A DNA stretch of 64,000 bases. Origin: Azolla caroliniana. Lineage: Eukaryota; Plantae; Polypodiophyta. Positions 3,308 to 50,656 of this stretch are shown here, in pieces. A model generated the notes under the pieces. That model had not been told where the DNA came from, ran no database searches, and was given only the letters and a program-made list of their open reading frames with translations. Where the stretch lies: NCBI GenBank assembly GCA_043228905.1, contig JBHGNT010000012.1:13826001-13890000 (forward strand). Reading direction: 5' to 3'. Made by a program: the position numbers and the translations under genes. Positions within the stretch are counted from its first letter, which is position 1. The number at the start of each line of letters is the position of its first letter.

Positions 3308-4346
3308 TGTTATAGACATGACCATATAATATCCAGTGGTGAGAATTTACCGTAGTATTCTATACACATGGATAAACTGTGATGGTTCAACGAGAGTGTA
3401 AAGCAGGGGAGGATTACTTTTAATCTTCGGGATTGAGACAACCCATTAGGGCCAAGTGTGAACTTGCTTGGAGGCCTTAGATCTGGCTATAAATATGAGG
3501 CCCAACTACCCTCATTGGACACATTATCGACTACGTAGAGACTCTGATATTGTGGTGGGTCAACTCTTATAGCGAGCACGCCAGGACTAGGTACAACTTG
3601 ACACCACGACGGTGGTATGGGACACCGACTGAGGCTCGAGTCCGTCTCAATCCCTTCGCTCGGGGGTGGTCGGGTGGATCAACACCCTTCTTTCTCTCAC
3701 TCCTCTCTTATTTATCTATCTTTTATCCTTATCATATGCTTACATTAGTAACTAAGCTCTAACAACTGGTATCAGACACATGTTTCCTTTAATGATTGTT
3801 TTTTTTTCTTGTTGGATGGCTATCGATTGATGCACAATCGAGCTTGATCTAGATAGCTATCAACAAAGGAACTTCAATAACTCTTTCTTATTATTTTTTC
3901 TATTCTTTCTTCTCCCAATCTAATCATGCATAAACGCTAGCGCATTTAGAACAGGTAATATGTCGCATTCCTTTATTGATAAATACATGAGATGTCCAAA
4001 ATTACTATTTTTTAACAAACTTTCAAGAATGTATCACGCATGTGCACATGACTTTTAAAAACATCATTAAAAACACAGTTAATATTATCAAGATTTCAAA
4101 TTTAACCTATATTTTCTCAATTCATACACAAATTTATCCTAATATTAGGTTAGATTACGGGAATGCTTCCAACTGTAATTGTAATATGCTTCACTTTACA
4201 TAATGTTGAATTTGAATCCAACTTAACAATTTTAGAAATACAATGTTGTTGCTATATTTGTCTCTAACTCCTATAAAGGTTGTTATATTAAATTAACAAA
4301 TAACATTTTTGGAAATAATTAGAAATATATTCACATGCCCAAAAAC
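3308..4346 (+). mobile_element. Chromovirus F' (family of F and G): 5' LTR 3308-3764, tRNA-iMet PBS 3767-3776 and start of 5' UTR; interrupted at 4347
   Basis: TGTTA...TAACA LTR is homologous to 61356-61811 and to the reverse complement of 41553-42008. TGGTATCAGA lies 2 nt after the LTR, and the following UTR resembles the reverse complement of 41373-41538. Confidence 0.9.
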
Positions 4347-5454: not shown

Positions 5455-7324
5455 TCACTCCAGTATGGGATTTCTTGTAAGTCCGATCCGCTTCCAGCAT
5501 GCATCCAGCTTGTCGGGTGTCAGCACCTTGGTCAACATATTCGACCCGTTCTCCTCCGGGTGGATCTTCGTCAACACGAACTCTCGATCTTCAACTCGCT
5601 CCCTGTTCCAGTGGTACCTGCGCGTTCTTTGCAAGGTGGATATCACTTTGATTGTCGCAGTAGAGCCGGTATTCCTCTTACCGAATCCCTAGCTCTCCGA
5701 TGAAGTCCTTAATCCATAATATTTCCTTGCCGGATTCCACGGTTGCCATGTACTCCGCCTCCGTGGTTGACAATGAAACCGTCTTCTGCAGCCTCGATTG
5801 CCACGAAACGGCTCCCCCTGCATAGGTCATGACATATTCAGAAGTTGACCGACTGGTGTTCACATCAGCCGACATATCTGAATCGGTAAATCCTTCCATG
5901 AGGGGTTTACTGGAGCCGAATCGGAGGCACATACCCAAAGTGCCCTTCACGTACCGGAGTATCCATTTTACCGCATTCCAGTGCTTTTTTTCGGGGTTGG
6001 CCATGAACCGACTCACCACTCCAACTACGTATCTAATATTTGGTCGAGTACACACCATTGCGTACATCAAGCTCCCGACCGTAGAGGCATATGGAATCTT
6101 CATCATATCTGCCTTCTCTGCCTTTGTCTTCGGGCTTTGCTTACCGGATAATCTGCAGTTTGCTGGGAGTGTCGATCCGAACGGTTTTGCTTCTAACATG
6201 TTGAACCGCTGAAGCACCTTTGACACATACTTTTCCTGTGACAGGCACAATTGCTTCTTCGACCGGTCCCGGATGATGTGCATCCCCTGTATCTATCTTG
6301 CCGGACCCAAGTCTTTCATTGAGAAGGTCCAATTAAGGGCCGTCTTCAGCATCTGTATCTTGACTTGGTCTCGTCCGATGATAAGCATGTCGTCCACGTA
6401 CAGGAGCAAATATCAGGAAATCTCCTCCATCAAATTTCTTCACAAACACGCAGTGATCGGCCTACATCTTGTGGTACCCTTGATCGATCATGAAGGAGTC
6501 AAACTTCCGGTACCATTGCCGGGGAACTTGCATCAGTCCGTATAAGCTCTTCTTCAGCTGGCACACCAGGTGCTCCTTCCCTTTCTTCTCAAATCCTTTT
6601 GGTTGATGCATGTAGATCTCTTCTTCGAGGTCTCCATGTAGGAATGCCGTCTGACGTCTAGTTGCTCTTACCTCGAGGTCCATGCTTGCCGCTATGCCCA
6701 ATACCGTCTGGATGGATGTCATCTTTACTACCGGGGCAAAGATCTCTCCTTTCTTCTACTGGAAGCCCTTCACCACGATTCGGGCCTTATACCTTGGTGG
6801 ATTTCCGGCGTCTCCCAGTTTCAGCTTGTACACCCACTTGTTCTGGAGTGCCCTCTTTCCTTTCGGCAACTCCACCAATTCGTATGTGTGGTTCTCATGC
6901 AAGGAATCCATCTCATCCTGCATGGCATTCAACCACTTGCGGCTGTGGGTGTCTCCCCTTGCTTCTTCAAAGCTTTCCGGCTCCCCCTCATCGGTTAGAA
7001 ACACATGCTCTGCATCCGGAAAACTTCCAGGGGCTCTTCTCTCCCAGAGAGGATATCTCCGTCTTTGGTTTCTTACTGTCGGTTCCTCCTTTTGTTCCTC
7101 ATCCTCATCCGATTCGGGATCTTTGTCCGGTTCCGGTGTCTTCTTCTTCTTTCCGGCCGATTCGTCGAGTGTCATCCGGGTATATCCTTTTGTCCTCAAA
7201 CCAGTTTTCAATGGATGATCCAGAGTTGGTTACCTTCTTCTCCGACTCCCAGTCGGCAATGGTCTTGTCTTCCATGAAGACAATGTCCCGACTCTGGAAC
7301 ACCTTTCGGTCGACCAGATCCCAT
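5455..7324 (-). pseudogene. pol: Copia A reverse transcriptase and RNase H (frameshifted)
   Basis: Motifs RYKARIVVKGF, TAFLHGDLEEEIYM, KSLYGL, LLYVDDMLII, LSQEKY and SLSTTEAEY. Confidence 0.95.
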
Positions 7325-7339
7325 TGTCATGATATGGCA

Positions 7340-7394
7340 GGACTCGAACCCATGACCTTATGGTATATGGGTCGAGCTCCTAACCATCACACCA
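7340..7394 (-). promoter_or_regulatory. tRNA-like Pol III A box and B box in B U3, facing outward
   Basis: Minus strand TGGTGTGATGG-N33-GGTTCGAGTCC. The copy in the 3' LTR at 16472-16526 has A box TGGTATAATGG. Confidence 0.65.
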
Positions 7395-7470
7395 TCTATT
7401 GTAATTTGTAGGATATTATTTTCATTTATGCTTTATTATAAGAAATTAATGTATATTCCAGATTTCTCTT

Positions 7471-7488
7471 GAACATTCTAGAAGCTTC
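7471..7488. promoter_or_regulatory. Heat-shock element upstream of the B TATA box
   Basis: GAAcaTTCtaGAAgcTTC is four alternating nGAAn units. A related array lies at 16590-16617. Confidence 0.65.
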
Positions 7489-7740
7489 AGGACTACTCCT
7501 CAGAGCACTATAAAAGGAGACACAAGGCATTGTTTTGAACCAAATTGGTTTAACGCCAGTCTTAAGCCTCTTAGCCACTTTGTACTTATCCTTCACATAA
7601 TATATTAGCTGTAATCATCATCTCTCTCTCTCTCATCCTCGCTATCTCTTATCCTTCATTATTCCTGACAATTTGAACCAATTTTCCTCCTCAAGCCTAC
7701 TTGTTATTCTCCCTCATCCTCCTACCCTTTTCCCTATACT

Positions 7741-8221
7741 ATGGCTACTGTTAGCGCCCAAGAATATCAATCCATTTTCTCCGAGCTACAATGCCTAAAA
7801 GAAAAATTGGTTGCCTTGGAACAAGAAAACCAACAGCTGATAGGGGATCTGCAACAAACCGCTCTAGAAAAACAACAAACGTAGCAACAACATGGGGAGT
7901 TAGCGTTACGGGTACAACAACTCGAAGCAACATTGCAACAACAAGGATCAAGTCCCCAAGGATTTCATAAAGAGCCGAAGATTGGACTTCCTGTGAAAAT
8001 TTGATGGAACGCGATTGCAATTCAGGGGATTCCTTAATCCAAATGCATCCTTCCTGATTAGTCATCCAAATGCATCCTTCCTGATACCCCACTGATGCAT
8101 CCCGAGTCGGCCTAATAGGCATGTTGCTTAGCGGCTCAGCCTTAGCATGGTTTGCTCTGCTTCTAGAAAAACAATCGCCCTTGCTTAATAACTTTGAAGA
8201 TTTTATTAGTGAGTTTAAAGT
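7741..8221 (+). pseudogene. gag: B gag N-terminus (continues at 14067-14754)
   Basis: MATVSAQEYQSIFSELQ...ALAWFALLLEKQSPLL is homologous to C gag and carries frameshifts. Confidence 0.85.
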
Positions 8222-8272
8222 TGTCATGACTTGAGAATAGGAGAGAAAAAAATAAGATGACAGTAGAAGGTA

Positions 8273-8320
<48 letters not shown>

Positions 8321-8458
8321 ACACTAGAAATGGAAAGAGAGTTTATATTATAAGAGAGCAAGGATTACAAAGAGTAGGCTAAGGGGCTACAAACTGGTGT
8401 TGAACCAAATGAGTTATGATGAATGAATAGACACCTATTTATAGGTCCTTATGGAGTA

Positions 8459-8590
8459 TTCTAGAATGTTCTAGAATGTTCTAGAATATTTTAGATATTT
8501 ATGATATTTAATATAATCATGGAATATCCTAGAATGTTCTAGAATACTCTAGATTGTTCTGGAATACTCTAGAATGTTCTAGAATACTCT
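8459..8590. promoter_or_regulatory. Two heat-shock element arrays in C U3 (copy at 13790-13921)
   Basis: TTCtaGAAtgTTCtaGAAtgTTCtaGAA is six perfect pentamers about 15 bp upstream of the minus-strand TATAAATA. A longer, partly degenerate array lies at 8522-8590. Confidence 0.7.
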
Positions 8591-8644
8591 AAATGTCTTG
8601 TAATAACTAATAATACATTTATTATAACTATACATCATATATGT

Positions 8645-8699
8645 TAGTATAATGGTTAACGGTCTAACATATAGACCAAGACGTCTTAGGCTCGAATCC
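8645..8699 (+). promoter_or_regulatory. tRNA-like A box and B box in C U3, facing outward (copy at 13976-14030)
   Basis: TAGTATAATGG-N33-GGCTCGAATCC with an internal stem GGTCTA/TAGACC. Confidence 0.65.
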
Positions 8700-8722
8700 T
8701 TCTAAGGCCAAAATGTATGTCG

Positions 8723-10081
8723 TCATGACATTATCCCCTTTTTTTGACGACGAGTTCCACGAGTCGGAAGACAAGATTTCGGACTTGGCTTATGAGGATA
8801 TTTGCTGTGAAATGCAGCAACCATTTCGGAGGCATTAGCAAGATTCTCAAGAGGTTCCCATGTTCGATCATTAGGTGTATAACCTAACCAGTCAACCAAA
8901 TAATACAGTTTGTTGCGAACGATCTTGGAGTCGAGAATGGCAGCAACTTCATATTCGGAGCCATCCGAAACTTCGATTGGAGGTGGGGGAGATGTACGAC
9001 GGCCTGGAATAGAGCTAGTTGTGTACGGCTCCAAAAGTGAAACATGGAAGACCGGGTGAAGATGCATATGAGGGGGAAGATCAAGGTGAAATGCCACATC
9101 ATTGATCTTACCAGATATCACATATGGGCCAAAACGTTGATAATTCAATTTGCAGCAAGGTCGGGTTGTTTTAATGCGACCTTGTAAAAGCCATACTCGA
9201 TCCCCCACTTGAAACGTAGTCGATGAATCACGTCGATGACGGTCGGCAACCTTCTTTTGAGTGTTTTGAGCATCACATAAATGGTGCAAAAGGATATCTT
9301 GAACTTCTTGGAGTCGGGTGAGCCGATCTTCAGCAGCCGGGTTTGTCAAGAGTTCGGGATGTTCAAGCATAGTCCAACGAGGATGGTACCCAATGTTTGC
9401 AAAAAATGGGGAATATCCAGTAGAAGAATGTTCTGAGTTATTGTAAGCAAATTCCGCCAAATGTAATAGATCAACCCAATCATCTTGTTGATAGTTGACA
9501 AAACAACGAAGATATTGCTCTACTGTTTGGTTGGTGCGCTCACTATGTCCGTTAGTTTCTGGATGGTAGCCGGAAGAGAGTTTGCAAGAAGTATGTAAGA
9601 GTTTGAACATGTGCCGCCAAAATTTTGAGATGAACTGGGGACCCCGATCACTGATAATATCATCAGGAAGACCATGATGCCGAAACACCTCTCGCATGAG
9701 TAACTTGGCTGTCTCTTGGCTCGTAATGGCCTTTGTGCAGGGAAGAAAATGTGCCATCTTGGTAAAACGATCTACTACCGTGAGAATAGAATCAAAACCC
9801 TTGGAAGATGGTAGATCTGTAATGAAGTCCAATGAAATAGATTCCCATGGACTCTCATGAATAGACATTGGCTGTAATAAGCCATATGGATGATGTCAAG
9901 GTTTTTTGGATTGGCAACATGTATCACAACTACGAACATAATCCGTAACAAAATGGTGAAGTCGTGGCCACCAATACCTTCGAGAAATTAACGTCAAAGT
10001 CTTGTGGATGCCAAAATGTCCAGCCATTGGTGTATCATGACATTGTTGAAAGAATTGGAGTCGAGAAGGACCATGAGGCAC
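8723..10081 (-). pseudogene. pol: C integrase with C-terminal chromodomain (frameshift near 9890)
   Basis: HDTPMAGH...CDTC zinc finger, ISLDFIT, DRGPQF, GPY motif, and chromodomain EYEVAAILDSK...YLVDWLGY...TWEPLENL. Confidence 0.95.
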
Positions 10082-10156
10082 ATATAAGAGATTTTGTCGA
10101 AAAAGTAAACCATCATGCCAATTGAACTGGTTGTAGTCTTGACGAGGATTTTGAGA

Positions 10157-12354
10157 TTATGAACAAGAAGCACGATCTGGGATAATATGGTTCAGAATAT
10201 CTTGGGCAAATTCATCAGTCTCAATATGCTCCCGAATTGTGTCTAGAAGACTTGAATCCTCGGGTGTGTCTATAGCATGAAAAGCCATTAGTCGTAGACG
10301 GTCAGGACCCAAGAGGATTTGCTTCTGACTTTCAAATGCGGCCTCTCCTGGTTGAAGTTCCATATATGAATGCTGAGATAAAGCATCTGCTTTGCCTTGT
10401 TGCGTCCCAGGGTGATATAGAATTACGAAATCAAAACGAGTTAAAAATTGCGCCCAACGAGCTTGTCGACGACTCAAGACTCGAGCACTTTGGAAGTACG
10501 TTAGATTTTTGTGATCATTATAGACAATGATTTGTTGAGACGAACCCTCCAAAAAATGACGCCATTGTTGAAAAGAATCCACAATGGCAAGAAGCTCTTT
10601 GTTGTGAATCTCATTGTTGATTTCTGCAGCTTTGAATTTCCGTGAATGAAAAGCCACAGGGTGTAGTTGGCCATCATTGCTAATCTGGGATAATACGCTT
10701 CCTAGTGCGAAGTCAGATGCATCAGCTTCCAGTATAAAGCGCTTCAATGGATCAACATGCATCAAAATTGGTGCGGATGTAAATGCTTGCTTTAATCCTT
10801 CAAATGCAGAGTTTGCATTTATACTCCACACAAATGGTTGATTCTTCTGTGTTAGTTGAGTGAGGAGCAATACGATCTTTGAATAATCTTTGATGAACTT
10901 GCGATAAAAGTTTGCGAACCCTAAAAAACATTGTACATCTCGCACAGACTGTGGTGTTTGCCAATCCAAAACTGTTTGAACCTTTGCTGGATCCATAGAG
11001 ATGCCATGTGAAGAGACTATATACCCCAAAAATTCCACTTGACGCTGGTCAAAGCTGCACTTCTCCAATTTTGCATAGAGACCATATTCACGCAACCGTT
11101 GCAAAGCTTGTCGAATGTGTATATCATGATCCTCTTGAGTTTTTGAGTAGATCAAGATATCATCTAGGTAAATTATGACGAAAATATCGAGGAAATCTCG
11201 AAAAATGTCATTCGCCATATGTTGGAAAACTACTGGTGCATTCGTGAGACCAAATGGCATCACTATATACTCAAAATGGCCATAGGGAGTATGAAAAGCA
11301 GTCTTCCATTCATCCCCAGGACGAATTCGAACAAGATTGTAAGCACCTCGAAGATCTAACTTTGTGAAATACTTAGTTCCATTGAGGTGTTCCAGAAGGC
11401 TCGAAATCAATGGTAGAGCATATCGGTTTCGAATAGTTACTTTATTCAATCCTCGATAATCCACAACGAGACGAAGCGAACCATCTTTCTTCTTAACGAA
11501 AAATATGGGTGCACCGGCAGGAGATCTTGAATGCTGAATAAACCCATTCGTCAAGTTCTCATCGATATATTCCCGAAGAGCCTCTAACTCCGTGGGTGAA
11601 AGGTTATAAATTGGCCCTCATGGAGGCTCTTTTCCGGGCTGCAAATCAATCGGGCAATCATATGGTCGATGCTCTGGTAGTCTATTGGCCTTCACCTTAT
11701 CAAAAACATTGGAGAATTCTATATATTTCTTCGGTAGTTGGACCCCCGATTATTGTGAGCTCGATGTGGGAGTTGCTAAAACTGTGAACACCAACATGTC
11801 TTCCTTCCGACCTTCCTCACGTAATTGATGTATAGAGATTGTCGAAATCTTTTGGAATGTAGTATCCTTTGTTGGAGTTTTAAGAGGCTCAAACTGTATT
11901 GTGACTTCTTCAATGGTTCTTTTTCTCCAATCAATAGTTGGGTTATGTAGCTCAAACCATGGAAGACCAAGAACTAGGGAGTGCTCTGGACTACTAATGA
12001 TGGTGAATGAGATGACACTAGCCAAATTGCCTAGGACTACATGAATTGGTTCAGACTCTTCAACTATATCACCCGATGCTATGGGGCGTCCATTAATGAC
12101 TCCGACTGACACTGGACTTGGGAGCTTATGCAACTGAATATTATGCATTACAGCAAACTCACGATCCATGAAACAAGAGTTGGCTCTAGAGTCTAAGAGG
12201 GCAGAAGTTGGGACTCGATGGCACCTAGATGTGTTAAGCTCAACGTGTGCAGAGAAAAATCGACTAACTTGACCAGATGAAATGGAACCACAACTAGGGA
12301 TGGACGTTACATGCCTAGGGCTGTCCAACCAAATGGCTCCGATTTTAGCCGGAC
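10157..12354 (-). pseudogene. pol: C protease, reverse transcriptase and RNase H
   Basis: ALLDSRANS (protease), [10 protein letters not shown] and YLDDILI (RT), EADASDFALG (RNase H). The frame is broken near 11750. Confidence 0.95.
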
Positions 12355-13473
12355 TTACTCATTTAACACATCATCTAATTGGCTCAAGACATCAAATGTA
12401 TTTTTATGACAGGGACTACTACGCCTACTTGGGTTACGAGAAGGCGGGGTAGAAATTGAGATGGGATTGTCATGAGCACTTACTTGGTTAACTTGTCGTG
12501 GTGGTTTATGTGGACAATTCACAACAATATGCCTTGGACCACCACAATAGAGGCATAGACGATTCACTCGCCGTCGTTGCTTTTCAGCATCCGATAATAG
12601 TCCTCGACGTCGTGTTGTCTCGATTTCTATTGGAGTAGGGCCTTCCACCACACTTGACTTTGATACTTGGGGTGGAGTTGCAACCACTGAAGCATATGTT
12701 TCTGTTGGTTGAAAGCGTAACATTTGTTGGCGCTCAGAACGCCACTCAAATAAGCGATTGTCACATCGCACGGCCCGGCTTACTGCTTCAATAAGAGATT
12801 TTGGATCATCATGGAAGGTAAGAAGTAAATCCTTCACATCATTGCGCAGACCTTGACAAAATTGGTCCATTAATGCCGCCTCGTCCCATGGAATATCGCA
12901 TGCTAGAAGGCGAAAATTTGCAGCATAAGCGGAAGTAGGAAGATCTCCTTGTCGTAATCGCCGAATTTTGTTTATTGCAGTCCTCATACTATTAGTGTCT
13001 CCAAAGTTGGCTTGGAACTCATTAATAAAACCTTCAAAATCTTTTAATAATGGTGAGTGCTTCTCTAGAAGTGGTGCAAACCACGCCAATGCAGTACCCG
13101 TTAACAAGGTACCAACTAGACCCACACGAGCAACATCAGTTGGGTAACGGCTAGGATGCAATTTAATCACAAGCCGTACCTGATTTAAAAATCCACGAAA
13201 TTGAGACCTTGTACCATCAAACTTGGCCGGCAGACTAATCTTGGGTTCCTTCGGCGAGGTTTGAACTTCTGCCGCTTGTCGTTGCAATAGAGTAGTCTCC
13301 AATTGATGCACCCGTTGAGATAATTCTTCATATTGTTGTACTTTCTCAACACTTTCTTGTTGTAGGTCTCCCAACAATCTTTGATTTTCATGCTCTAGTG
13401 CCAAGAATTTGGTTGTTAGCATTTTGAGCTCAGAGAGAACACGCATATATTCTTGCTTGCTGACGGACTCCAT
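12355..13473 (-). CDS. gag: C Gag (372 aa; capsid-like domain and CCHC knuckle)
   Basis: Open ORF with LPAKFDG, ALAWF, LRQG, GLRNDVKD and CLYCGGPRHIVVNC. Confidence 0.93.
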   Translation of the reverse strand: MESVSKQEYMRVLSELKMLTTKFLALEHENQRLLGDLQQESVEKVQQYEELSQRVHQLETTLLQRQAAEVQTSPKEPKISLPAKFDGTRSQFRGFLNQVRLVIKLHPSRYPTDVARVGLVGTLLTGTALAWFAPLLEKHSPLLKDFEGFINEFQANFGDTNSMRTAINKIRRLRQGDLPTSAYAANFRLLACDIPWDEAALMDQFCQGLRNDVKDLLLTFHDDPKSLIEAVSRAVRCDNRLFEWRSERQQMLRFQPTETYASVVATPPQVSKSSVVEGPTPIEIETTRRRGLLSDAEKQRRRVNRLCLYCGGPRHIVVNCPHKPPRQVNQVSAHDNPISISTPPSRNPSRRSSPCHKNTFDVLSQLDDVLNE

Positions 13474-13553
13474 AGTTGCGATAGAAAATTGCTAGATTTG
13501 GTTGAATAAGGTTAAGATAAGAAGAAGAAGTTGGAGAAGAAGGAAAGAGATAA

Positions 13554-13564
13554 ATTCGGTTCAA
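13554..13564 (-). promoter_or_regulatory. Self-priming-type PBS of C
   Basis: TTGAACCGAAT lies 2 nt after the 5' LTR and is the exact reverse complement of ATTCGGTTCAA (13731-13741), 33 nt from the TATA start. Confidence 0.8.
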
Positions 13565-13566
13565 AC

Positions 13567-14061
13567 TGTCGTGACTTGAGAATAGGAGAGAGAAAAATAA
13601 GATGACAGTAGAAGGTAGAGGGGGAGAGAGAGAGAGAGAGAGAGAGAAAGAACACTAGAAATGGAAAGAGAGTTTATATTATAAGAGAGCAAGGATTACA
13701 AAGAGTAGGCTAAGAGGCTACAACCTGGTGTTGAACCGAATGAGTTGTGATGAATGAATAGACACCTATTTATAGGTCCTTATGGAGTATTCTAGAATGT
13801 TCTAGAATGTTCTAGAATATTTTAGATATTTATGATATTTAATATAATCATGGAATATCCTAGAATGTTCTAGAATACTCTAGATTGTTCTGGAATACTC
13901 TAGAATGTTCTAGAATACTCTAAATGTCTTGTAATAACTAATAATACATTTATTATAACTATACATCATATATGTTAGTATAATGGTTAACGGTCTAACA
14001 TATAGACCAAGACGTCTTAGGCTCGAATCCTTGTAAGGCCAAAATGTATGTCGTCATGACA
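13567..14061 (-). repeat. C 5' LTR (495 bp)
   Basis: Direct repeat of 8222-8730. Confidence 0.95.
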
Positions 14062-14066
14062 AAAGC

Positions 14067-16456
14067 TTGCTTTGGAGACACCGACAACATCAGGACGGCG
14101 ATCAACAAGATTCGACAATTGTGTCATGGCGATCGTCCAGCCTATGCCTACGCGGTTGATTTCCGTCTAGTCGCCTCAGATATCCCCTGGGATGATCAGG
14201 CACTAATGGAGCAGTTTCGCTACGGCCTGCGAAACGATGTAAAAGATTTACTTTTAACCTTCCCCGAAGAACTAAAATCTCTTATAGAGGCAATCAGTCG
14301 AGCGGTTCGATGTGACAACCGCCTTTTCGAACGGCGTTCCGAACGTCAATTACAAATACCACACTCTAGGCTAGAACCCACATACGCCTCAGTCACGGCT
14401 AAATCGTTCGCATGCGACGTACCTCAAGCAAATACTCCAACACCGATGGAGATGGACACCATGCATCGACGTGGCCCGTTATCGGAAGGAGAAAAGCAAC
14501 GACATTGTGCAAATTGATTATGTCTTTATTGCAGTGGACCAGGGCATATCACAATCAATTGTCCCCATAGGCCAAGAAGACAAGTAAATCAAATCGTAGC
14601 CTGTACTAAACCCGAGTCAATTCTTCCCTTAGGAGTGTCTGATAGTATTAATAATATTAATACAGTGTCTGATAGCATTAATAGTACTAATAGCCCAAGT
14701 ATCTCAAACAAATTTGAAATCCTTAGTCAATTAGATGAAGAGTTAAACGATTGAGTCCAGCCGAAATAGGAGCCGTTTGGTTGGACAACCCTAGATTTGT
14801 ACAACCCATTAGTGGTTCCATTCCCTCCAACCAAGTTAGCAATGTGTTCCTAGCCGAAGTCATGGTTAGTACTAAAAGTACTCCCCCAATACAAGTCCTA
14901 GCACTTTTAGATTCCGGAGCCAATTCCTGTTTCATGGGTCGAAATTTTGCCCAAGCTTCTCAAATATCCTTAAGAAAACTTCCTTGCCCCACATCTGTAG
15001 TAGTCATTGATGGTTGTCCCATTGCTTCCGGGAATATTGTAGAAGAGTCAGAACCCATTCAGGTTGTCCTAGTTAGTTTTGTGTGTGTAGTATCATTTAA
15101 TATAATTAGTAGTCCAGAGCATCCCATTGTCCTGGGATTACCTTGGTTTGAACTACATAATCTAGACATAGATTGGAGAACAAGAGAAGTTCGATATCGA
15201 CAACCCCAAGAATCTACTCATCGAGTTTCGACCATTTCACTACGTCAACTACGCGAAGAAGGACACAAGGAGGCAATGTTCCTATTTGCCATATCAGTAC
15301 ATCCTTCCAGCAATATTAAGGAGGAATCCTTAGTGCAACTTCTGGCGAAATATCATCCTTATGCTGACGTATTTGACAAGGTAAAAGTCGATACTCTTCC
15401 TCATCATCGTCCCTATGATTGTCGCCTCGATTTACAACCAGGAGCAGAGCCACCATGGGGACCAATCTACAACTTGTCACCCACTGAGTTAGAAGTCCTT
15501 CGAGCCTACATAGAGGAGAACTTGGCAAGCGGGTTTATTCGTCATTCGAAATCTTCGGCCGGAGCACCCATCTTCTTTGTCAAGAAGAAAGATGGCTCAC
15601 TTCTTCTCGTCGTTGATTACTGTGGCTTAAATAAGGTCACCATCCGGAATAGGTATGCACTTCCTCTTATATAAAATCTTTTAGAGCGAGTTAATGGTGT
15701 CAAGTTTTTTACAAAAATCGATCTACGAGGAGCATATAACCTCGTGCGAATCCGACCGGGAGATGAATGGAAGATCACCTTTCGCACGCGGTATGGGCAT
15801 TTCGAATATACTGTTATGCCGTTCAGTCTAACAAATGCACCCGCACCGCAGTCTTCCAACACATGGAAAATGATATATTCAGAGACCTCTTGGATATCTG
15901 TTTGATCATCTATCTGGATGATCTATTGATTTATTCGAAGACCCAGGAAGAGCACGATTCTCATGTACTATTAGTACTAAACCGGCTCCGTGAGAATGGT
16001 CTTTATGCCAAGCTAGAAAAATGTAGCTTTGACTGCAAGCAAGTGGAATTTCTAGGCTACATTATCTCCTCAAAGGGCATCTCCATGGATCCAACTAAAG
16101 TCCAAACTATGCTAGAGTGGAAAATTCCACGGTCAGTACGAGATGTATAATGTTTTCTAGGTTTTGCTAACTTCTACCGCAAGTTTATACAACATTACTC
16201 GAAGATTATTTTACCTCTCACACAACTTACGAAGAAGGGACAAGCATTTCTTTGGTCCAATGAAGTGGACATGGCTTTTCGGCATCTTAAGAAAGTCTTT
16301 ATGTCAGCTCCTATTCTAGTGAACGTACTTGGGAACCCATCAAGCATGTCACCAATGCTCAAGATCTTCTTCCTGAGTTCCATCGAAAGTATCCAAACAA
16401 ACTCGGTCCGCAATCAGTGCCGACTCGTTCCACTCGTCACCTTAAGGGGGAGATAG
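14067..16456 (+). pseudogene. pol: B gag C-terminus, protease, RT and chromodomain tail (large deletion at ~16320)
   Basis: [19 protein letters not shown] and YLDDLL. SAPILV is joined directly to the chromodomain end [10 protein letters not shown]...FHRKYP. Confidence 0.9.
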
Positions 16457-16899
16457 TGTCATGATATGGAAAAACTCGAACCCATGACCTTCTGTTATAT
16501 GGGTCGAGCTCTTGACCATTATACCATCTATGGTAATACGTAGGATATTTTTTTCATTTAAGTTTTATTATATAGGAAATTAATGTATATTCTAGAATTC
16601 TCTAGAACATTCTAGAAGCTTAAGGACTACACCTGAGAGCACTATAAAATGAGGCACAAGGCATTGTTTTGAACCAAATTGGTTCAATGCCAATCTTAAG
16701 ACTCTTAGCCACTTTGTACTTATCCTTCACATAATATATTAGCTGTTATCATCATCTCTCTCAATCTCATCCTCGCTATCTCTCTCTCCTCTTCTCTCTT
16801 TCTCTCTCGACAATCTTACGCAGTCCCGTTCTCTTAGTACTAATAATACTTCTCTTCTTTATTACTAATTCTCTCTCTGCTTTAGAACTATTCCTAACA
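16457..16899 (+). repeat. B 3' LTR (443 bp)
   Basis: TGTCATGA...CCTAACA after the PPT. U5 is about 97 nt longer than in the 5' LTR. Confidence 0.9.
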
Positions 16900-17620
16900 C
16901 CCATACCCGGTAACCAAACTCATCATCGCCGTATCCAAGGAATATGCATGGTCGGGACTTCGGATCCAGGTTTGCTCTCTTGTCCTTCGCCACATGCACG
17001 TATGTGAGACACCCGAACACCTTCAGATGTCGGTAAGACACATCCTTACCAGTCCATACTTTCTATGGTGAGTCTCCGTCCAAGGGTACTGAGGGTGATA
17101 TGTTTATCACATAGGTCGTCGTCGTTAGCGCCTCAACCCAAAACGTCTTGGGTAACTTGGCATGTGCGAGCATGCTCTGGACTCTCTCCATTATGGTCCG
17201 ATTCATCCTTTAGGCCAACCCGTTTAGTTCCGGCGTCTTCGAGCCGGATTCCCTCCGACTGGCAGTACTCCTCGAACTGCCCCCGATATTCTCCTCCATT
17301 ATCTGCTCGAACCGCTTTTAGCTTCCGGCCGGTTTCTCTTTCCACTCTCGCGTGGAGCTCCTTGAAGACGGATAACACTTGATCCTTCGTCTTCAATGGT
17401 GAGACGCACAACTTCCGGAAATGGTCATCTATAAACGTCACGAAGTACTACGATCCAGCATGTGATTTCGTGTCTACTTGATACACATCAGTATGCATCA
17501 GCTCTAGTGGTGCATTCCATCTCATCGGTGGTATTGACTGGAAAGAGGTGCGGTTTTGCTTGCCGACCAGGCAGTCGGTGCACTTCTCAAGTTGCACATC
17601 CTTCACCGGAATGAGGTTGT
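16900..17620 (-). pseudogene. pol: Copia A integrase
   Basis: CTDCLVGKQ, LELMHTDV, FIDDHFRK, RADNGGEY and HLKVFGC. Confidence 0.92.
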
Positions 17621-34271: not shown

Positions 34272-35109
34272 GTTGTCTTCGGAAATCCTCTTCATCCCCT
34301 TCTAACTCATGTGACACAGTCTTTTGTGCCACAGCTCACTGGTAGTGTCGGATGCTATGTTCACTTCATCAAGTACAGTGTATTGACATTCAGGCCTTGA
34401 GCCACTATTAAGCTCCCTTTGTAGAACTTCATGACACCGTTCCGGATGCTACCTGTGTCGCCTTCATCATCTAGCCAACTAGCTGATATCAGGTTCAGTC
34501 AAACCTCCGAAGCGTGTCGGACATCCTTCAGCAGCAACTCGCATCCGGTTGATGTCATCAACAACATGTCTCCTATGCTGATAATTCAACATGTCCCTTC
34601 ATTCCCCATCCGGCCATAGCCGTGCTCACCGGCTGTGTAGGATGAGAAGAATTTCCAGTCCGGGGTAAGGTGGAACGACGCTCCAGAATCGACAACCCAC
34701 GTGGTCTCGTCGACGGCAAGGTTAAACTCACTCTCCTCGGTGATGAGTGTTAGTTCTTATTCACTTGCCGCGATCGCCGTCGTTCCCTTCCAGTCCGGGC
34801 CTCGCCGATCCGAACCGTTTCGGTTCGGTGAGTTCTTTGAATCAGTATTGTCGGAGCCCGTGTCTTCCTGGAAATGCCGACAATTCTTCTAGAATTGCCC
34901 CGGCTTGCCGCAATAGAAGCAAGTGGGCCTCCCCCTTCACTTTGACCGTGTCCCCGACTTTTCCCAATTCTAGGGACTCCGATTCCTTTGTCTTCCGTGT
35001 TCCGATTCGGTAAGGAGGGCTTTTGCGTCAGAGATAACTTCCTTGTCTTTCCGATGCGCCTCCTCATCTAACAAGCTCGACTTGACTCTTGTTAGGGATA
35101 GTTGTTTTC
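34272..35109 (-). pseudogene. pol: Copia A zinc knuckle, protease and GAG-pre-integrase
   Basis: CFYCGKPG, WVVDSGASFHLTP and LWHKRLCHMS. Confidence 0.88.
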
Positions 35110-35565
35110 TATTAGAGACATGTACTAAAGTAAGCATTAGATAAGGATAGATCTAGGTAGATAGAAAGAAAGGAGAGAGAGAAAGAAGGGTGTCGATCCA
35201 CCCGACCACCCCCGAGCGAAGGGATCGAGATGGACTCGAGCCTCGATCGGCATCCCATACCACCACCGTGGCGTCGAGTCATACCTGGTGCTAGCGCGCT
35301 CACAACAAGAGTTGACCCACCACAAGACAGAGTCTTGACGTAGTCAACATGATGATCAAATGAGGGTAGCTAGGCCTCTTATTTATAGCGATACCCAAGG
35401 CCCCCACGCAAGTTCACACTTGGCCTCATGGGTTGTCTCAATCCCGAGGATTAAAAGTAATCCTCCCCTTCTTTACACTCTCATTTAACCCTCACACTTA
35501 TCCACGTGTATAGAATACTACGGTAAATTCTCACCACAGGATATTATATGGTCATGCTCGTAACA
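35110..35565 (-). repeat. F 3' LTR
   Basis: Direct repeat of 41553-42008. Confidence 0.95.
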
Positions 35566-41552: not shown

Positions 41553-42008
41553 TATTAGAGACATGTAGTAAAGTAAGCATTAGATAAGGATAGATCTAGG
41601 TAGATAGAAAGAAAGGAGAGAGAGAAAGAAGGGTGTCGATCCACCCGACCACCCCCGAGCGAAGGGATCGAGACGGACTCGAGCCTCGATCGGCGTCCCA
41701 TACCACCGCCGTGATGTCGAGTCGTACCTAGTGCTCGCTCGCTCGCTACAAGAGTTGACCCACCACAAGACAGAGTCTCGAGGTAGTCAACATGATGATC
41801 AAATGAGGGTAGCTAGGCCTCTTATTTATAGCGATACCCAAGGCCCCCATCCAAGTTCACACTTGGCCTAATGGGTTGTCTCAATCCCGAGGATTAAAAG
41901 TAATCCTCCCCTTCTTTACACTCTCGTTTAACCCTCACACTTATCCACGTGTATAGAATACTACGGTAAATTCTCACCACGGGATATTATATGGTCATGC
42001 CCATAACA
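41553..42008 (-). repeat. F 5' LTR
   Basis: Followed on the minus strand by TT and TGGTATCAGAGC. Confidence 0.95.
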
Positions 42009-42120
42009 TTTTCCTTCTGGCCCGGCGTTGCGCAACGTGACAACTAATGTCTCCCAGCTATCCAGGAGTGAACCGAGAAAGAGTAGAGCAAGGACCTCAT
42101 CGGCGAGAGGTACTTCCAAT

Positions 42121-45291: not shown

Positions 45292-48200
45292 TGTTGAAGA
45301 CAAGGCCGTCAATGCGGAAGATCAAGTAGCATTCGATTGGGGTTGAGTACCTGCGTATGACAGTTTCCAAGATCGTGCAAAGAGATAGAGAGAGAGAGAG
45401 AGAGGAGGCACAAGAATCTTTCTATTCAACAGAAATAATAATACAACCAACCTTACAAAAAGGTTATTAGGTCACTTTATATAGTGACCGACTTAGGGCA
45501 ACTACCATTTATGCTAATTACACAAATGGCCCAAACTTGAGCTATACAAAGGGATAGTGTGAATACGTCCATTATACACTTGTATTCGACACTCCCCCGT
45601 AATGGGCGTATACATGGGTTATCTAAGATTACAGGTATAAACCTAGGTTCTCGGACATATCAGTTTTTGTTCGAGTCGGCAGGGTCCGAGGGCAGAAGAC
45701 CGAACTGGTCGGGTCGGAAGAGTTGAAGCCGATCATTAAGGAACTGATGTCGGTTGTCCGAAACCATCCTGCGCTGTGTCCGGCTCTAACCGGACTGGTT
45801 TGTCGTTACGCCCATCTGATGCCGAAGGGACCAAAAGCGGTCTGCCGAAAGACACTTGGTCATTCCATCTGCAACATTGTCGGTTTTGGATATTTTCTCT
45901 AGACCGATTTTCCCTGAAATGACGCAGTCCCGAACGAAGTGATATCGAACGTCGATATGTTTGGAGGCGTTGTGGTGAACCGGATTTTTCGACAAGGCAA
46001 CAACACCTTGACTGTCGTTATAGACAACTGGGGCCGAGTCATGGTCGACTTGTCGAAACGTGTGCGCCAGCCGGCCGAGCCACAAAGCTTCTTTTGCAGC
46101 GTCGGACGCAGCTACATATTCTGCTTCGGTCGTTGAGGTCGCTGTGCACTCCTGAAGTTTCGACTTCCACGAAATTGCTCCATTGCCGAATTTGAAGCAG
46201 TATCCAGTTGTTGATTTCCGACTGTCTATACAGCCGGCGAAGTCCGAGTCGGTGTAACCGACTACGCCTGAGGTTGAGTTCGGACCGAAAAGAATGTCGT
46301 GGTCTTTTGTGCCAGCCAGATATTTGAACACATGCTTGACTGCGTTCCAATGCGATCGGCCAGGATTGTGCATAAATCTGCTAACGACTCCTACGGCATG
46401 AGAAATATCAGGCCGTGTCGCGACCATCAGGTACATGAGGGAGCCGACTGCCGGTGCATACGGTACCGACTTCATATCTTCCCCCTCCGGACCGGATGTC
46501 GGGCAGTCCCGCTGAGAGAGCCGAAGATTCATGGGGAGCGGGGTTGAAGCAGATTTGGCTGATTGCATGTTGAAGCGTTCCAAGACACGTCCGATATAGT
46601 CGGTCTGAGACAAAAAAAGATGTCGTTTATCGCGATGCCGACTAATCTTCATGCCGAGTATGTGTCGTGCCGGACCGAGGTCCTTCATGGCAAACTTCAA
46701 CCGCAATTGCCGAATGAGATCGGCAAATTCGCCCGCATGGCGTCCAGAAATTAGCATGTCGTCCACGTAAATGATGAGGAAGATGGGTGATCCATCTTGA
46801 GCTGTGTTGGTAAAAAGACAATGGTCCTCATCGCTTTTTGAGAAGCCGATCGATTGGATGAAGTCGTCGAACTTCTTGTACCATTGTCGCGGTGCCTGTT
46901 TGAGGCCGTATAGACTCTTCCTGAGTCGGCAGACTAGATGTTCTTGGCCAGTTGCCACGAAGCCTTTTGGCTGCTCCATATAAATTTCCTCTTCAAGATC
47001 ACCATGGAGGAAGGTTGTTTTGACATCTAGCTGAATCAGCTCCAAGTTGTCGGTTGCCACTACGCCGAGTAGAAAACGAAGGGTTGTCATTTTCACCACT
47101 GGTGAAAAAATCTCGTCGAAGTCGACGCCATATTCTTGTCGGAAGCCCTTCGCAACTAATCTGGCCTTGTACTTTGGGGTGGTCGAATCAGACGTCTCTT
47201 TTAGTCGATAGACCCACTTGCAAGGGAGAGCACGTCGATTCTTAGGTAATTCGACCAGATCCCAAGTCTTGTTTGCCCGAATGGAGTGCATTTCCGACTC
47301 CATCGCCAGATGCCAGGTGGCTGAATCGACAGATGTCGATGCTTCTTCGTAAGACGTCGGTTCGCCGGCGTCGGTGAAGAAAATTCCAGGAGAATACCTC
47401 TCCGGAGGTTGCGACAGTCTTTTGGATCGTCGAGGTATGATTGGACTGGTCGTATCGGGTATCGAGGTCGGATGGTCCGAAAGCGAATTATTCTGCTGTG
47501 CCGAGTCAGAGTTGTCCGAGTCGGTAGTGTAAGGTTCAGCTACCCGTGAAGCTGACCGTGTGTTGAGAGCGGGGCTTTCTTGAAGGGTCGGCACATCGGA
47601 AAATGTTACCCTTCGGACTTCGATCGGTGTTTCGACTGATGGATTCATAGCCGACTCGTTGAACACAACGTCCGAACTTCGAACGATTTGTCTGCGTTCG
47701 GGGTCCCAGAGTCGGTATCCCATTTCGCCGTCTGATCCATATCCAAGGAAAATGCATTTCCTGGACCGAGGTGCAAGTTTTCGGCGATCATCTTTCGGAA
47801 TAAGGGCGTACGCCTCGCATCCAAAGATCCTCAGCTTGTCGTAATTCGGCTTACTGCCGATCCATAGTTCCTGAGGAATTTGAAGTCCTAGAGGTCTGCT
47901 TGGCGACATATTGATTATGTGTACTGCCGTGAGTAGAGCCTCTGCCCAGAAGCCATCTGACAGTCTGGAGTGTTGGAGCATGGAAACTATCCGTTCTTGG
48001 ATTGTCCGATTCATGCGTTCTGCAATCCCGTTTTGCTCCGGACTGTGTGGTGCCGTAAATTCACGTCGGATGCCGCGTTGTCGGCAGAATTTGACGAATT
48101 CTTCTGATTTGTACTCTCCCCCATTGTCGGTCCGAAAGCATTTCAGTTTTCGGTCAGTTTGATTTTCTACCATAGCGAGCCAATCGGAGAAGATCGAGAA

Positions 48201-50656
48201 GACACGATCTTTGGTGCGAATTGGATAAGCCCACACCTTTCGAGTCGAATCGTCAATAAAACTGACGAAGTAAGAGGCACCACCGAGAGACTGATGCGGC
48301 ATTGGGCCACAGACGTCCGAGTGGACTAAATCGAGAGGTCTCGTTTCTCTTGGTGCTGATGTCGGGTGTGATGCGGCTGCTTGTTTGCCATATTGGCAAT
48401 GTTCGCAGAATTGATGGTCCGCGAAGGAGAGTTTAGGGATGTATCCGGCTCTAGATAGGTGCGTAATGCCGGCCTTGCTGAGGTGTCCTAATCTTCTGTG
48501 CCATAGTGATGACACAGGAATATCCACCAAAAACAAGTTACCCTCTCTGAGCGTAACATGTAACGGATACAGTGAGTGTATCTTGGGTCCTCTAGCAAGC
48601 AGGAGGTTCCCCCTGTGGAGTGTCCACCCTCCCGAAGAAAAATCGGCACGAATGTCGTCTTCATCTAGTTGTCCGACTGAGATCAATGGCCTTGAGAGCT
48701 CGGGTACATGTCGGACATTGTGAAGTACAAGTGTAGAGCCACCTGCAAGGTTGAGCTCTACTGTGCCGATTCCAATGATGTCACAGTGTTGCGAGTTGCC
48801 GACTCGAACTGAGTCGGAGTGACGGATCATATATTGCCGAAATTGGGATCGATGAGGAGTCACGTGAAATGACGCGCCCGAATCTAAGAGCCATGTGCTC
48901 GATTCTTCAGTCGTGAGCAGAACTTCTGATCCGACTGGATTTTCGATTGATAGTATATTCGGGTCGTTTGGTAGCACATCAGCTGAGAAGCTGACGTAAT
49001 TGATCTCCTCATGCCGGCCACTCTTCTTGTCTGATTTCTGAGACTTGTCGTTCTTGTTCTTGAGTGCACGGTAGTCGGCTTTGATGTGTCCGGGTTTCTT
49101 GCAATAGTTGCAGATTCGATTATCCCGTGACTGGCTCCGTCTTCGCTGATTGTTCGGCTGCCGTGAGGAATCTCTTCCTCGTATGTTCGATCGGTCTGTC
49201 GAACCTTGTACTACATAAGCGTCGTCTGTTGAGTCATTGGCGAAAGACTTTCTCCGAGCTGCTTCGGTCAGAATTGCGCTCGTGACTTCGGAGTATTTAA
49301 CAGCCGTGGTTGACGCGTTGCACACGGTTGTGACGAAAGTTTCCCATGATGAGGGAAGGCTGCTCATGAGTATCATTGCTCTGAGTTCATCCTCGATTGC
49401 CGTCCCCTGAGATGAGATTTGGGAGCTTATGCTTTCGTACTCATTGAGATGTGCTTGAACCGAATCTGATTCTTTCATCCTCAAGTTGTAGAGGCGCCGG
49501 ATCAGGAACATCTTCGTTGCAGCGACCTTCTTTTCGTAGGTGTCCGACAGTGTTTTCCACAGTTCGAATGCTGTCGTACACGATTGCACCATAAAGTATA
49601 CCGATTCCGATAGGTGCATCCGAATCGTGGCGCGGACGATTCTGTCCAGCTTCTGCCACTCAATTGGTTTGTATTCTTCTGGAGGTGCTTCACTTTCGAT
49701 GGGATCGATTTGCCCCTTGACTATGAGATAGTCCTGCATTTGCTCCTTCCAGAAGTTGAAGTTCGATCCATCGAACTTTCGTAGACTCATTTCTGACGAA
49801 CCGGATGTTGATGTCATGACTCTGCCCTAAGTCGGCTACGAACTTTGGTGAAGTGCAGCGGTTTGGCCCACTCAGTGTCGTTCTAGCCGAAGTTGGACAC
49901 AAGTGATGTTGATTACGGAGAATCGGGGATTTGGTTCGGATTGACTACCGACAACTGTCTTAGTCGAGTTGAACCTAGATTTAGCGATCCGACAGTACTT
50001 CAAGCCGATTCGGTTTCGGTTGACTGCAACGGTGAGAGCAATGGAACCGACTGGTCCTTCCGATTATTGTCCAATCGAATGAAATGCGAACTGGGGTTGT
50101 CCTTGAAGTCGTCGTTGTGCAGGAAGCCCACCTCAAGCAGTTACGATCAAGGAAGTAGAGTACAGCCGACTGGCTTACTCCGAGTGATGATCTAACGCAG
50201 CGAGATTCAAGCTTGTGTTTGCCTACTTTCTTCTCTGTTTCTTCGAATGACGCGAGAAACCGAATGCTTTGCAGACTAGGATGAAGCGAAAGGCCGAATA
50301 CTGTGCAGGCTGTGATGACGGCCGACAGCGGGTTGAGGAACCAGGCTCTGATACCAAATGTTGAAGACAAGGCCGTCAATGCGGAAGATCAAGTAGCATT
50401 CGATTGGGGTTGAGTACCTGCGTATGACAGTTTCCAAGATCGTGCAAAGAGATAGAGAGAGAGAGAGAGGAGGCACAAGAATCTTTCTATTCAACAGAAA
50501 TAATAATACAACCAACCTTACAAAAAGGTTATTAGGTCACTTTATATAGTGACCGACTTAGGGCAACTACCATTTATGCTAATTACACAAATGGCCCAAA
50601 CTTGAGCTATACAAAGGGATAGTGTGAATACGTCCATTATACACTTGTATTCGACA
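45292..50656 (-). mobile_element. Ty1/Copia element H, intact and very young; TSD CACAC
   Basis: LTRs 45292-45591 and 50359-50656 look identical except for one AG unit. PBS 50345-50356, PPT GGGGGAG, CACAC at 45287-45291 and 50657-50661. Confidence 0.97.
45786..49817 (-). CDS. gag-pol: Copia H Gag-Pol polyprotein (1343 aa)
   Basis: One open ORF with KFDGSNF, CNYCKKPGH, WLLDSGAS, WHRRLGH, VHSDVCGP, TDNGGEY, YKARLVAKGF, YVDDML and STTEAEY. Confidence 0.97.
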   Translation of the reverse strand: MTSTSGSSEMSLRKFDGSNFNFWKEQMQDYLIVKGQIDPIESEAPPEEYKPIEWQKLDRIVRATIRMHLSESVYFMVQSCTTAFELWKTLSDTYEKKVAATKMFLIRRLYNLRMKESDSVQAHLNEYESISSQISSQGTAIEDELRAMILMSSLPSSWETFVTTVCNASTTAVKYSEVTSAILTEAARRKSFANDSTDDAYVVQGSTDRSNIRGRDSSRQPNNQRRRSQSRDNRICNYCKKPGHIKADYRALKNKNDKSQKSDKKSGRHEEINYVSFSADVLPNDPNILSIENPVGSEVLLTTEESSTWLLDSGASFHVTPHRSQFRQYMIRHSDSVRVGNSQHCDIIGIGTVELNLAGGSTLVLHNVRHVPELSRPLISVGQLDEDDIRADFSSGGWTLHRGNLLLARGPKIHSLYPLHVTLREGNLFLVDIPVSSLWHRRLGHLSKAGITHLSRAGYIPKLSFADHQFCEHCQYGKQAAASHPTSAPRETRPLDLVHSDVCGPMPHQSLGGASYFVSFIDDSTRKVWAYPIRTKDRVFSIFSDWLAMVENQTDRKLKCFRTDNGGEYKSEEFVKFCRQRGIRREFTAPHSPEQNGIAERMNRTIQERIVSMLQHSRLSDGFWAEALLTAVHIINMSPSRPLGLQIPQELWIGSKPNYDKLRIFGCEAYALIPKDDRRKLAPRSRKCIFLGYGSDGEMGYRLWDPERRQIVRSSDVVFNESAMNPSVETPIEVRRVTFSDVPTLQESPALNTRSASRVAEPYTTDSDNSDSAQQNNSLSDHPTSIPDTTSPIIPRRSKRLSQPPERYSPGIFFTDAGEPTSYEEASTSVDSATWHLAMESEMHSIRANKTWDLVELPKNRRALPCKWVYRLKETSDSTTPKYKARLVAKGFRQEYGVDFDEIFSPVVKMTTLRFLLGVVATDNLELIQLDVKTTFLHGDLEEEIYMEQPKGFVATGQEHLVCRLRKSLYGLKQAPRQWYKKFDDFIQSIGFSKSDEDHCLFTNTAQDGSPIFLIIYVDDMLISGRHAGEFADLIRQLRLKFAMKDLGPARHILGMKISRHRDKRHLFLSQTDYIGRVLERFNMQSAKSASTPLPMNLRLSQRDCPTSGPEGEDMKSVPYAPAVGSLMYLMVATRPDISHAVGVVSRFMHNPGRSHWNAVKHVFKYLAGTKDHDILFGPNSTSGVVGYTDSDFAGCIDSRKSTTGYCFKFGNGAISWKSKLQECTATSTTEAEYVAASDAAKEALWLGRLAHTFRQVDHDSAPVVYNDSQGVVALSKNPVHHNASKHIDVRYHFVRDCVISGKIGLEKISKTDNVADGMTKCLSADRFWSLRHQMGVTTNQSG

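Follow-up and report, generated by a model that had tools for sequence, protein, structure and literature searches.

A tRNA-derived A box/B box module at the outer edge of self-priming chromovirus long terminal repeats is a candidate TFIIIC site

A 64-kb stretch of the Azolla caroliniana genome (GenBank assembly GCA_043228905.1, contig JBHGNT010000012.1, positions 13,826,001 to 13,890,000 of the forward strand; hereafter the window, numbered from its first letter) contains two chromovirus retrotransposons, B and C, whose four long terminal repeats (LTRs) each carry a short tRNA-like stretch at the outer edge. This module consists of an antisense A box and B box that face outwards. Compared across relatives, its sequence is clade-wide, tRNA-derived and under selection at the level of the DNA motif. 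We favour, with about an even chance of being right, a role as a DNA site on which host TFIIIC would land and which would shield the RNA polymerase II (Pol II) promoter of the element from flanking silent chromatin.

In the 5′ LTR of B, the module lies at 7340–7394 on the minus strand (A box 7394–7384, 33-nt spacer, B box 7350–7340), 15 nt from the LTR end. It has AGGTC in the spacer at tRNA positions 44–48 and scores 45 bits with the module profile. The copy in the 3′ LTR of B is at 16472–16526 (minus strand; A box 16526–16516, B box 16482–16472), with the last positions decayed. Element C carries the module on the plus strand, at 8645–8699 in its 3′ LTR (A box 8645–8655, B box 8689–8699; 31 nt from the LTR end) and at 13976–14030 in its 5′ LTR (A box 13976–13986, B box 14020–14030). 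A first-pass annotation of this DNA had proposed an antisense A box, 33 nt and a B box in all four LTRs; coordinates, strand and spacing were verified, as were the orientation toward the LTR 5′ edge and the reported decay at 16472, where the B box ends in TTT. Both strands of the window were scanned with a 17-point A + B score allowing spacers of 30–36 nt. The four modules alone reached 16 points, one site reached 15 and none reached 17. Every module outscored all 100 shuffles of its own LTR tip, and only these four sites exceeded 12 bits with the module profile (family C being within the training set). The 15-point match, at 7901–7955 (plus strand, 33-nt spacing), lies inside the gag frame of B, does not match the module profile and is taken as a chance occurrence.

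Relatives were sampled as the best 80 of 586 metagenome loci by alignment of the integrase SH3 and chromodomain region, disregarding the LTR, after scanning 14 of the 64 parts of the collection. The 3′ LTR tip was readable (at least 80 nt) in 65 loci, too short in six and without a locatable position in nine. Trees of the SH3 + chromodomain region placed element C within a group of 20 rows (19 loci besides C), which was recovered every time. Module counts use this group, as an earlier split at 58% identity had been picked after the scores were known. In thinned-set trees, built from 46 and 45 of the 82 rows, the ultrafast bootstrap (UFBoot)/Shimodaira–Hasegawa-like approximate likelihood ratio test (SH-aLRT) values of the group were 91/94 or 85/96, and 97/95 with L019 included; six of the 27 rows labelled as lacking the module in these trees had no readable LTR tip. 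Three clade loci were unreadable. Among the 16 readable ones, 14, from about eight families, had the module antisense at the LTR tip with 13–17 points. Leave-one-out profile scores of eight family representatives ranged from 29.7 to 41.5 bits. Outside the clade, the module was found in none of 48 other readable loci, the best (L045) having a score of 14, a 30-nt spacer and no profile match. One further locus outside the clade, L020, has a weak module at 1072–1185 (20.5 bits; good B box, poor A box) and is self-priming with the same primer core. Given L020, capture of the tRNA stretch may be older than the clade.

The module thus stands at the same place across about eight families, which is not the one-off insertion of a short interspersed element (SINE) named beforehand as the outcome that would count against it. 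Hallmarks of copy-specific SINE insertion (a target-site duplication (TSD) and tail of its own, absence from most copies) were not found, and contigs crossed the module in four runs. Contigs including the module were obtained for family C in runs of organisms A, B, C and F, and for family B in those of A, C, D and F. A span of 161 bases of the family-B tip was covered by 2870 contigs from a single run, a figure that is not a copy number. Viral contigs gave no match by protein search or by motif.

Conservation was measured on the eight family representatives (69% amino-acid identity), with fourfold-degenerate integrase sites as the neutral reference. Mean pairwise identity was 0.83 in the B-box core, 0.90 at positions 44–48, 0.76 in the 3′ part of the A box and 0.55 in its 5′ part. 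The corresponding value was 0.46 at fourfold sites (composition floor 0.32). The mid spacer and the bases following the B box were both at 0.41, and the 40 nt upstream at 0.45. The boxes are therefore more conserved than both neighbouring U3 and synonymous sites, the first of these being a comparison on which the first-pass annotation had staked its proposal. In the B box (GGTTCRANNC), G53, T55, C56 and R57 were present in all eight families, and T54, A58 and C61 in seven. In the A box (TRGYNNARNGG), T8, R9, Y11, R15 and G19 were present in all eight and G10 in five, and the 5′ half varied within families. Variation within family B is given for the 40 rows listed of 47. Weighted by contigs, which does not count copies, variation at ≥4% affected 1 of 11 sites in the B box, 1 of the ten that follow, 4 of the 6 mid-spacer sites and 19 of the 48 sites upstream of the A box. 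None of the ten sites after the mid spacer and none of the four of ATGG varied at this level.

Geometry is kept as well. The spacer was 32 or 33 nt in all 17 aligned modules, and the distance from the B box to the LTR end was 15–39 nt; module length shifted by at most 1 nt in 55 nt, while the flanks shifted by up to 24 nt and whole enhancers were swapped. The A–B spacing matches that of an intron-less tRNA gene. In yeast tRNA genes, the range of this spacing begins at 32 bp (PMC12409998; papers are cited by accession). The 45 nt upstream were 76–93% A+T in 16 of the 17 modules. The module was kept where nGAAn arrays (C, B, L010) were replaced by CATGCA/ACGTG-type motifs (L004/L009, L006, L007). 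Across the sister families, nGAAn arrays were seen in B, C, L002, L008, L010 and L014, and CATGCA, ACGTG and GCCAAnTGGC repeats in L004/L005/L009, L006 and L007. Judging by these motifs, our guess is that the enhancers represent heat versus abscisic acid (ABA)/spore-type control. The nGAAn arrays are called heat-shock elements (HSEs) here by their consensus. The earlier idea that module and HSE arrays form one system was not borne out: three module-bearing families have no HSE array, and the association is incidental. Nor do the LTRs of B and C otherwise align poorly, as had been claimed, since the part from HSE to TATA box and primer aligns at 70.6% over 214 nt (C against a family-B locus).

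A tRNA origin, also proposed from the first reading, was supported by running the module profile on tRNA genes and by blastn against phage tRNAs. A weight table built from eight modules only was run on 24 kb of phage DNA with 19 tRNA genes; the two phage loci had been picked because a module had matched one tRNA in each. It gave 12 matches above 8 bits. Ten of them fell on tRNA genes, with their start at position 8 or 9 of the gene; above 19 bits there were eight matches in this DNA, every one a tRNA gene. When the B module was compared with phages by blastn, 29 of the 40 matches listed fell on annotated tRNAs, mostly Met (E 0.7–9; related phages), and 42 of 53 columns were identical to one phage tRNA-Met gene. 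The L009 module gave mostly chance matches among phages, with a tRNA in 2 of 25 rows. The best-scoring of the 19 phage tRNAs was Thr, His, Trp, Ala, Pro or Arg in the other families, and no isotype was therefore assigned. Read in tRNA numbering, the module is positions 8–61 in register, including the variable-loop AGGTC. It would be explained if the ancestor of the clade had on one occasion captured a tRNA gene or a SINE of tRNA type, in either case possibly Met-like. In one of the phage records (L081, 5908–6135), the three annotated tRNA genes are on the strand opposite to the ARAGORN calls.

The module was rejected as a tRNA gene, since the cloverleaf of acceptor, D, anticodon and T stems was not found. 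The Rfam tRNA model, suggested as a check by the first-pass annotation, reported no tRNA at E ≤ 10 in window positions 7000–17000, in 11 loci or in two LTR tips taken alone. ARAGORN found no tRNA in the window and none in any of the 60 loci (out of 80) that it was run on; at a 70% threshold on 17 LTR tips it made 22 calls, 12 on the module strand and 10 elsewhere, and was too noisy to use. RNAalifold returned no consensus pair on either strand. Pair counts for the cloverleaf and for an alternative hairpin were intermediate, the anticodon stem being paired in 19 of 40 cells. The stem GGTCTA/TAGACC reported near the anticodon arm is present in C; it is confined to family C and centred 3 nt off that position. 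An 11-bp hairpin over the B box was observed in family B (7340–7377, 16472–16509 and L008 5068–5105; z about −3 to −5 on both strands). Its arms vary little within the family (40 of 47 rows listed) and it has no counterpart in other families. An oligo-T terminator is not conserved: T4 occurs inside the LTR tip in four of eight families and is absent from L008 and L010. Because neither a cloverleaf nor a terminator is conserved, the module is best read as a TFIIIC site acting at the DNA level. Its strong B box, half-kept A box and unvarying geometry form the pattern of a DNA site.

The B box is a high-affinity TFIIIC site, whereas binding to the A box is weak and depends largely on shape (PMC12409998). 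tRNA genes and B-box-only sites halt heterochromatin in yeasts and mammals in either orientation (PMC12409998). The group I chromodomain of MAGGY binds methylated histone H3 lysine 9 (H3K9me; PMC3350952), and B and C lie within dense repeat DNA in the window. Taken together, the barrier precedents, the chromodomain and this setting lead us to read the module as a TFIIIC site between flank and enhancer. TFIIIC probably binds the B box, placed between the flank and the Pol II enhancer. TFIIIB would then be positioned on the AT-rich stretch on the inner side, between the A box and the enhancer. The result would be a nucleosome-poor boundary 100–250 bp upstream of the TATA box, so that a stress or developmental enhancer stays accessible once the chromodomain has guided insertion into heterochromatin. 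Any RNA polymerase III (Pol III) transcript would run outward as a by-product. For the barrier role itself, the chances appear evenly divided. Somewhat short of even is the wider proposal that autonomous, heterochromatin-seeking plant retrotransposons have domesticated a tRNA-gene promoter as a portable TFIIIC/Pol III boundary at the LTR outer edge, where it would act as the element's own anti-silencing device, retained while enhancers were swapped, and protect an inducible Pol II promoter.

Several observations weigh against this TFIIIC boundary. Promoter-type tRNA invariants were retained in 120 of 128 cells and structure-only invariants in 30 of 56 (eight families), but the first count is partly circular because the sites were located by box score. 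AGGTC (44–48), T16 and T20, which fall outside the usual box consensus, are conserved like the boxes, and rival readings account for them equally well. At position 54, family C has C. In the A box, the 5′ half is loose: G10 is kept in five of eight families, is mostly T in family C and is changed in 19–51% of depth in family B (three of four runs), where all seven sites of this half vary at ≥4%. The window copies of C carry G at this third A-box position, a minority letter (T in 82%, 91%, 99% and 71% of contig depth in four runs), and their A box is better than that of family C overall. In fission yeast, a tRNA-gene (tDNA) barrier requires an intact A box (PMC2040200), and the barrier precedents at hand are from yeasts and animals alone. 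The B-box CpG is decayed in 8–11% of depth in family B (three runs; 40 of 47 rows listed), so methylation may block binding in many copies. Support for the C group is uneven, with an SH-aLRT of 96 that falls to 51 once one distant row, that of the window's family D, is excluded. Two clade members, L052 and L053 (one decayed sequence), have no module. The module-bearing loci all come from one series of European Nucleotide Archive (ENA) metagenome assemblies and therefore probably from one host group, and the deep contigs may be collapsed copies.

A rather unlikely alternative is that the module works as a Pol III promoter whose outward or antisense transcript, or transcription itself, is selected. 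The tRNA-gene spacing of the two boxes and the AT-rich DNA upstream suit this view, and foamy-virus LTRs produce Pol III RNAs through A/B-box cassettes (PMC3993851). The family-B hairpin reaches antisense z values of −3.3 to −4.2 (both LTRs of B and L008), but it is equally strong on the sense strand in two of these three copies, and no fold is shared across families. Read backward, the polypurine tract (PPT) supplies at least four T in C, L001 and L002, against which stand the T4 within the LTR tip of only half of the families, a 5′ LTR product that would end in unrelated flanking DNA, and a weak A box. Were this view right, the 3′ LTR transcript would cross the PPT and enter the integrase end, and it could tune element RNA or plus-strand priming. 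With neither a fold nor a T-run terminator conserved, the case for a defined outward Pol III RNA is weaker.

It is unlikely that the module acts instead in the genomic RNA, the sense strand just past the PPT pairing with the D, variable and T loops of a host tRNA and so aiding packaging, dimerisation or strand transfer. The antisense orientation fits this idea, as does conservation of positions 44–48, 16 and 20 beyond the box consensus. The split primer site of Ty3 offers a precedent for tRNA pairing. Another is the tRNA-like U3-R sequence of HIV-1 (PMC6468702). Primer-binding site (PBS) and LTR primer are however complementary in B, C, L005, L006 and L007 and co-changed in L011, which makes a tRNA primer unneeded. 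Moreover, the mid spacer has drifted to the neutral identity of 0.41, the 3′ strand of the acceptor stem is unmatched (identity 0.41 at 62–66), and pairing is broken, wobble pairs included, by several changes in the boxes (G10 to T, A14 to G, A58 to C and C61 to T). The complement of the B box was also considered as a second self-primer site and was rejected, since the primer is changed in L010 and L011 and the B box is not.

A doubtful alternative is that a tRNA relic is kept as sites for Pol II factors, for example the W-box-like TGACC on the sense strand, rather than for TFIIIC. AGGTC/GACCT is indeed the best conserved block (0.90), and the looseness of the A-box 5′ half would be expected. 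The conserved positions nevertheless coincide with tRNA invariants in the A box and in the B box, spaced at a constant 32–33 nt in about eight families, a geometry that separate sites do not need, and family C has ACGTC in place of AGGTC. That the module is a neutral passenger, an old SINE or tRNA insertion recognisable through shared descent only, is very unlikely and already largely refuted: boxes at 0.76–0.90 contrast with neutral or neighbouring DNA at 0.41–0.46, length is nearly fixed while flanks and enhancers change, and the B box varies little within family B. Saturation of synonymous sites is incomplete (0.46, with a floor of 0.32), so descent leaves some likeness, and the absence of the module from L052/L053 would also agree with a passenger. 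Hardly credible is a landing pad or decoy attracting Pol III-targeting retrotransposons, for although TRE5-A requires intact B boxes in its targets (PMC5006619), neither the four LTRs of the window nor the module loci legible as far as the TATA box showed an insertion upstream of the A box, mixed loose ends did not cluster there among the rows listed (24 of 303 for family B, 24 of 592 for family C), and selection on the carrier would be left unexplained.

The module resembles several known systems in part. Helenus elements (TRIMp3; TRIM, terminal-repeat retrotransposon in miniature) likewise have a tRNA-derived stretch in both LTRs, conserved around boxes A and B and forming no working tRNA (PMC10886601); one plant case, in Selaginella, is described in the same paper. 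They differ in being non-coding, mostly shorter than 1.3 kb and tRNA-primed, with sense boxes in the examples given and a proposed role in transcribing the element (PMC10886601). Elements of the clade of B and C, on the other hand, encode gag-pol, have a TATA/Pol II promoter, self-prime and carry antisense, outward-facing boxes, which therefore cannot make genomic RNA. Autonomous Helenus partners are argued to need Pol II, and in the part of that paper available no such case is described (PMC10886601). The paper also mentions without detail that 'not a few' Repbase LTRs contain part of a tRNA (Kojima 2024, PMC10886601). Cassandra, a plant element, and Ajax are TRIMs that also retain Pol III motifs of small-RNA genes in their LTRs, but theirs is a 5S-type (type I) promoter that drives their own RNA, and they are non-autonomous (PMC10886601, PMC12786077). 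Simian foamy virus is closer in being an autonomous, Pol II-using retroelement with A/B-box Pol III units in its LTR; its product is a structured and terminated primary microRNA (miRNA) transcript, whereas here the unit is antisense and tRNA-derived in register, with neither fold nor terminator conserved (PMC3993851). The most likely working model is provided by tDNAs, extra-TFIIIC (ETC) sites and B-box barriers, which are orientation-independent TFIIIC sites at chromatin borders; these are host loci of yeasts and mammals and are not carried by a mobile element (PMC12409998, PMC2040200). The tRNA-Lys3-like U3-R sequence of HIV-1 is also a tRNA-related U3 stretch of an autonomous retroelement. 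It helps strand transfer by pairing with the primer tRNA, unlike the present elements, which are self-priming and keep only the box positions (PMC6468702). In the titles and opening lines of abstracts searched, an antisense tRNA-type promoter in autonomous chromovirus LTRs was not described, most subscription journals and all Repbase entries lying outside the search.

The window is a pile of nested LTR retrotransposons. Element B (plus strand) was inserted in a Copia element, and element C (minus strand) is nested in the gag region of B. The 5′ LTR of B (7325–7670, plus strand, 346 nt) has TG...CA ends, and the TSD CCCAT is found at 7320–7324 and 16900–16904. The 3′ LTR (16457–16899, plus strand) is 89.9% identical over 346 aligned nt, the 5′ LTR being shorter in its 3′ part. 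Sequence and motif counts placed a short nGAAn (HSE-like) array at 7472–7489 (plus strand). A TATA box at 7509–7515 (plus strand), the putative Pol II promoter, lies about 34 nt ahead of the self-primer site at 7543–7553 (plus strand). This site is the reverse complement of the self-priming PBS at 7673–7683 (plus strand), with one mismatch, and is intact at 16677–16687. The remainder of B (14062–16456, plus strand) comprises decayed gag, protease, reverse transcriptase (RT), partial RNase H, a deletion, a chromodomain remnant and the PPT (16444–16456). B is not intact: the stretch between RNase H and chromodomain has been lost, and RNase H is joined straight to the chromodomain remnant.

Element C is on the minus strand throughout. 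Its 3′ LTR (8222–8730) and 5′ LTR (13567–14061) are 98.4% identical (487/495), with TSD AAAGT/AAAGC. The PPT (8731–8745) contains a T run when read in the direction of the module. The gag-pol region (8723–13491), delimited from Pfam, the list of open reading frames (ORFs) and translation, occupies several frames and encodes gag, RT, RNase H, integrase, SH3 and a group I chromodomain. The self-priming PBS (13554–13564) is complementary to the self-primer at 13731–13741 in the 5′ LTR, where the TATA box is at 13767–13774 and the nGAAn array at about 13790–13920. This order of Ty3/gypsy domains, with a caged chromodomain at the C-terminus, fits a Tcn1 or Tf1-sushi-type chromovirus (the trees contain unnamed relatives only). 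The cage residues Y...W..Y are found in C and six relatives (numbering per PMC3350952).

In B, C, L005, L006, L007, L011 and L020, the PBS is complementary to 11 nt starting about 33–34 nt past the TATA box. In L011, the primer (3′ LTR) and the PBS are changed in matched fashion, and this comparison directly supports, in sequence terms, self-priming by plant elements of the Tcn1 type. Self-priming had been counted at first reading as part of an undescribed system, but the trait is already described in Tcn1 elements (PMC6317226). Together with the caged chromodomain, it is a described mark of the Tcn1 clade of non-seed plants (PMC6317226, PMC3350952). The present elements agree with that clade in Ty3/gypsy order, caged group I chromodomain, self-priming, 5-bp TSD and non-seed-plant range, and differ in the tRNA-like LTR module, which goes unmentioned in the parts of those descriptions available (PMC6317226, PMC2864245, PMC3350952).

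Other elements were recorded alongside. A second chromovirus family of the window, D (3308–3760, 35109–35565, 41553–42009, 57047–57266 and 61356–61812), has a tRNA-type PBS. Its LTRs have a sense B-box-like 11-mer in the middle but no A-box module (11 of 17 points, no profile match). The Copia element at 45786–49826 (minus strand) has an unbroken gag-pol frame of 1346 amino acids and near-identical LTRs and is therefore a recent insertion. Among the sampled loci, the U3 tip of other chromovirus groups (L017–L025, L028–L043 and related loci) is occupied by short tandem repeats in place of the module. Stray A–B stretches resembling a tRNA or SINE were noted outside LTRs in L033 (11626–11575, minus strand, 32.9 bits), L015 (533, minus strand, 25.3 bits) and L011 (1062, minus strand, 15.1 bits); they are probably decayed SINE heads.

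Pol III promoters in LTRs are already known for making element RNA (Cassandra, Helenus) or miRNA (foamy viruses). Here, an autonomous element would keep one under selection where neither its own RNA nor a miRNA can be made. If RNA pairing were the true explanation, the module would reveal that an element whose priming requires no tRNA still depends on one at some step. If the TFIIIC boundary is real, it would show by what means chromoviruses remain inducible after landing in silent chromatin and would offer a direct test of tDNA-type barriers in plants. It would also constitute a very abundant class of extra-TFIIIC sites in a plant genome, scattered through heterochromatin, and the module could supply a 55-bp insulator for plant transgenes.

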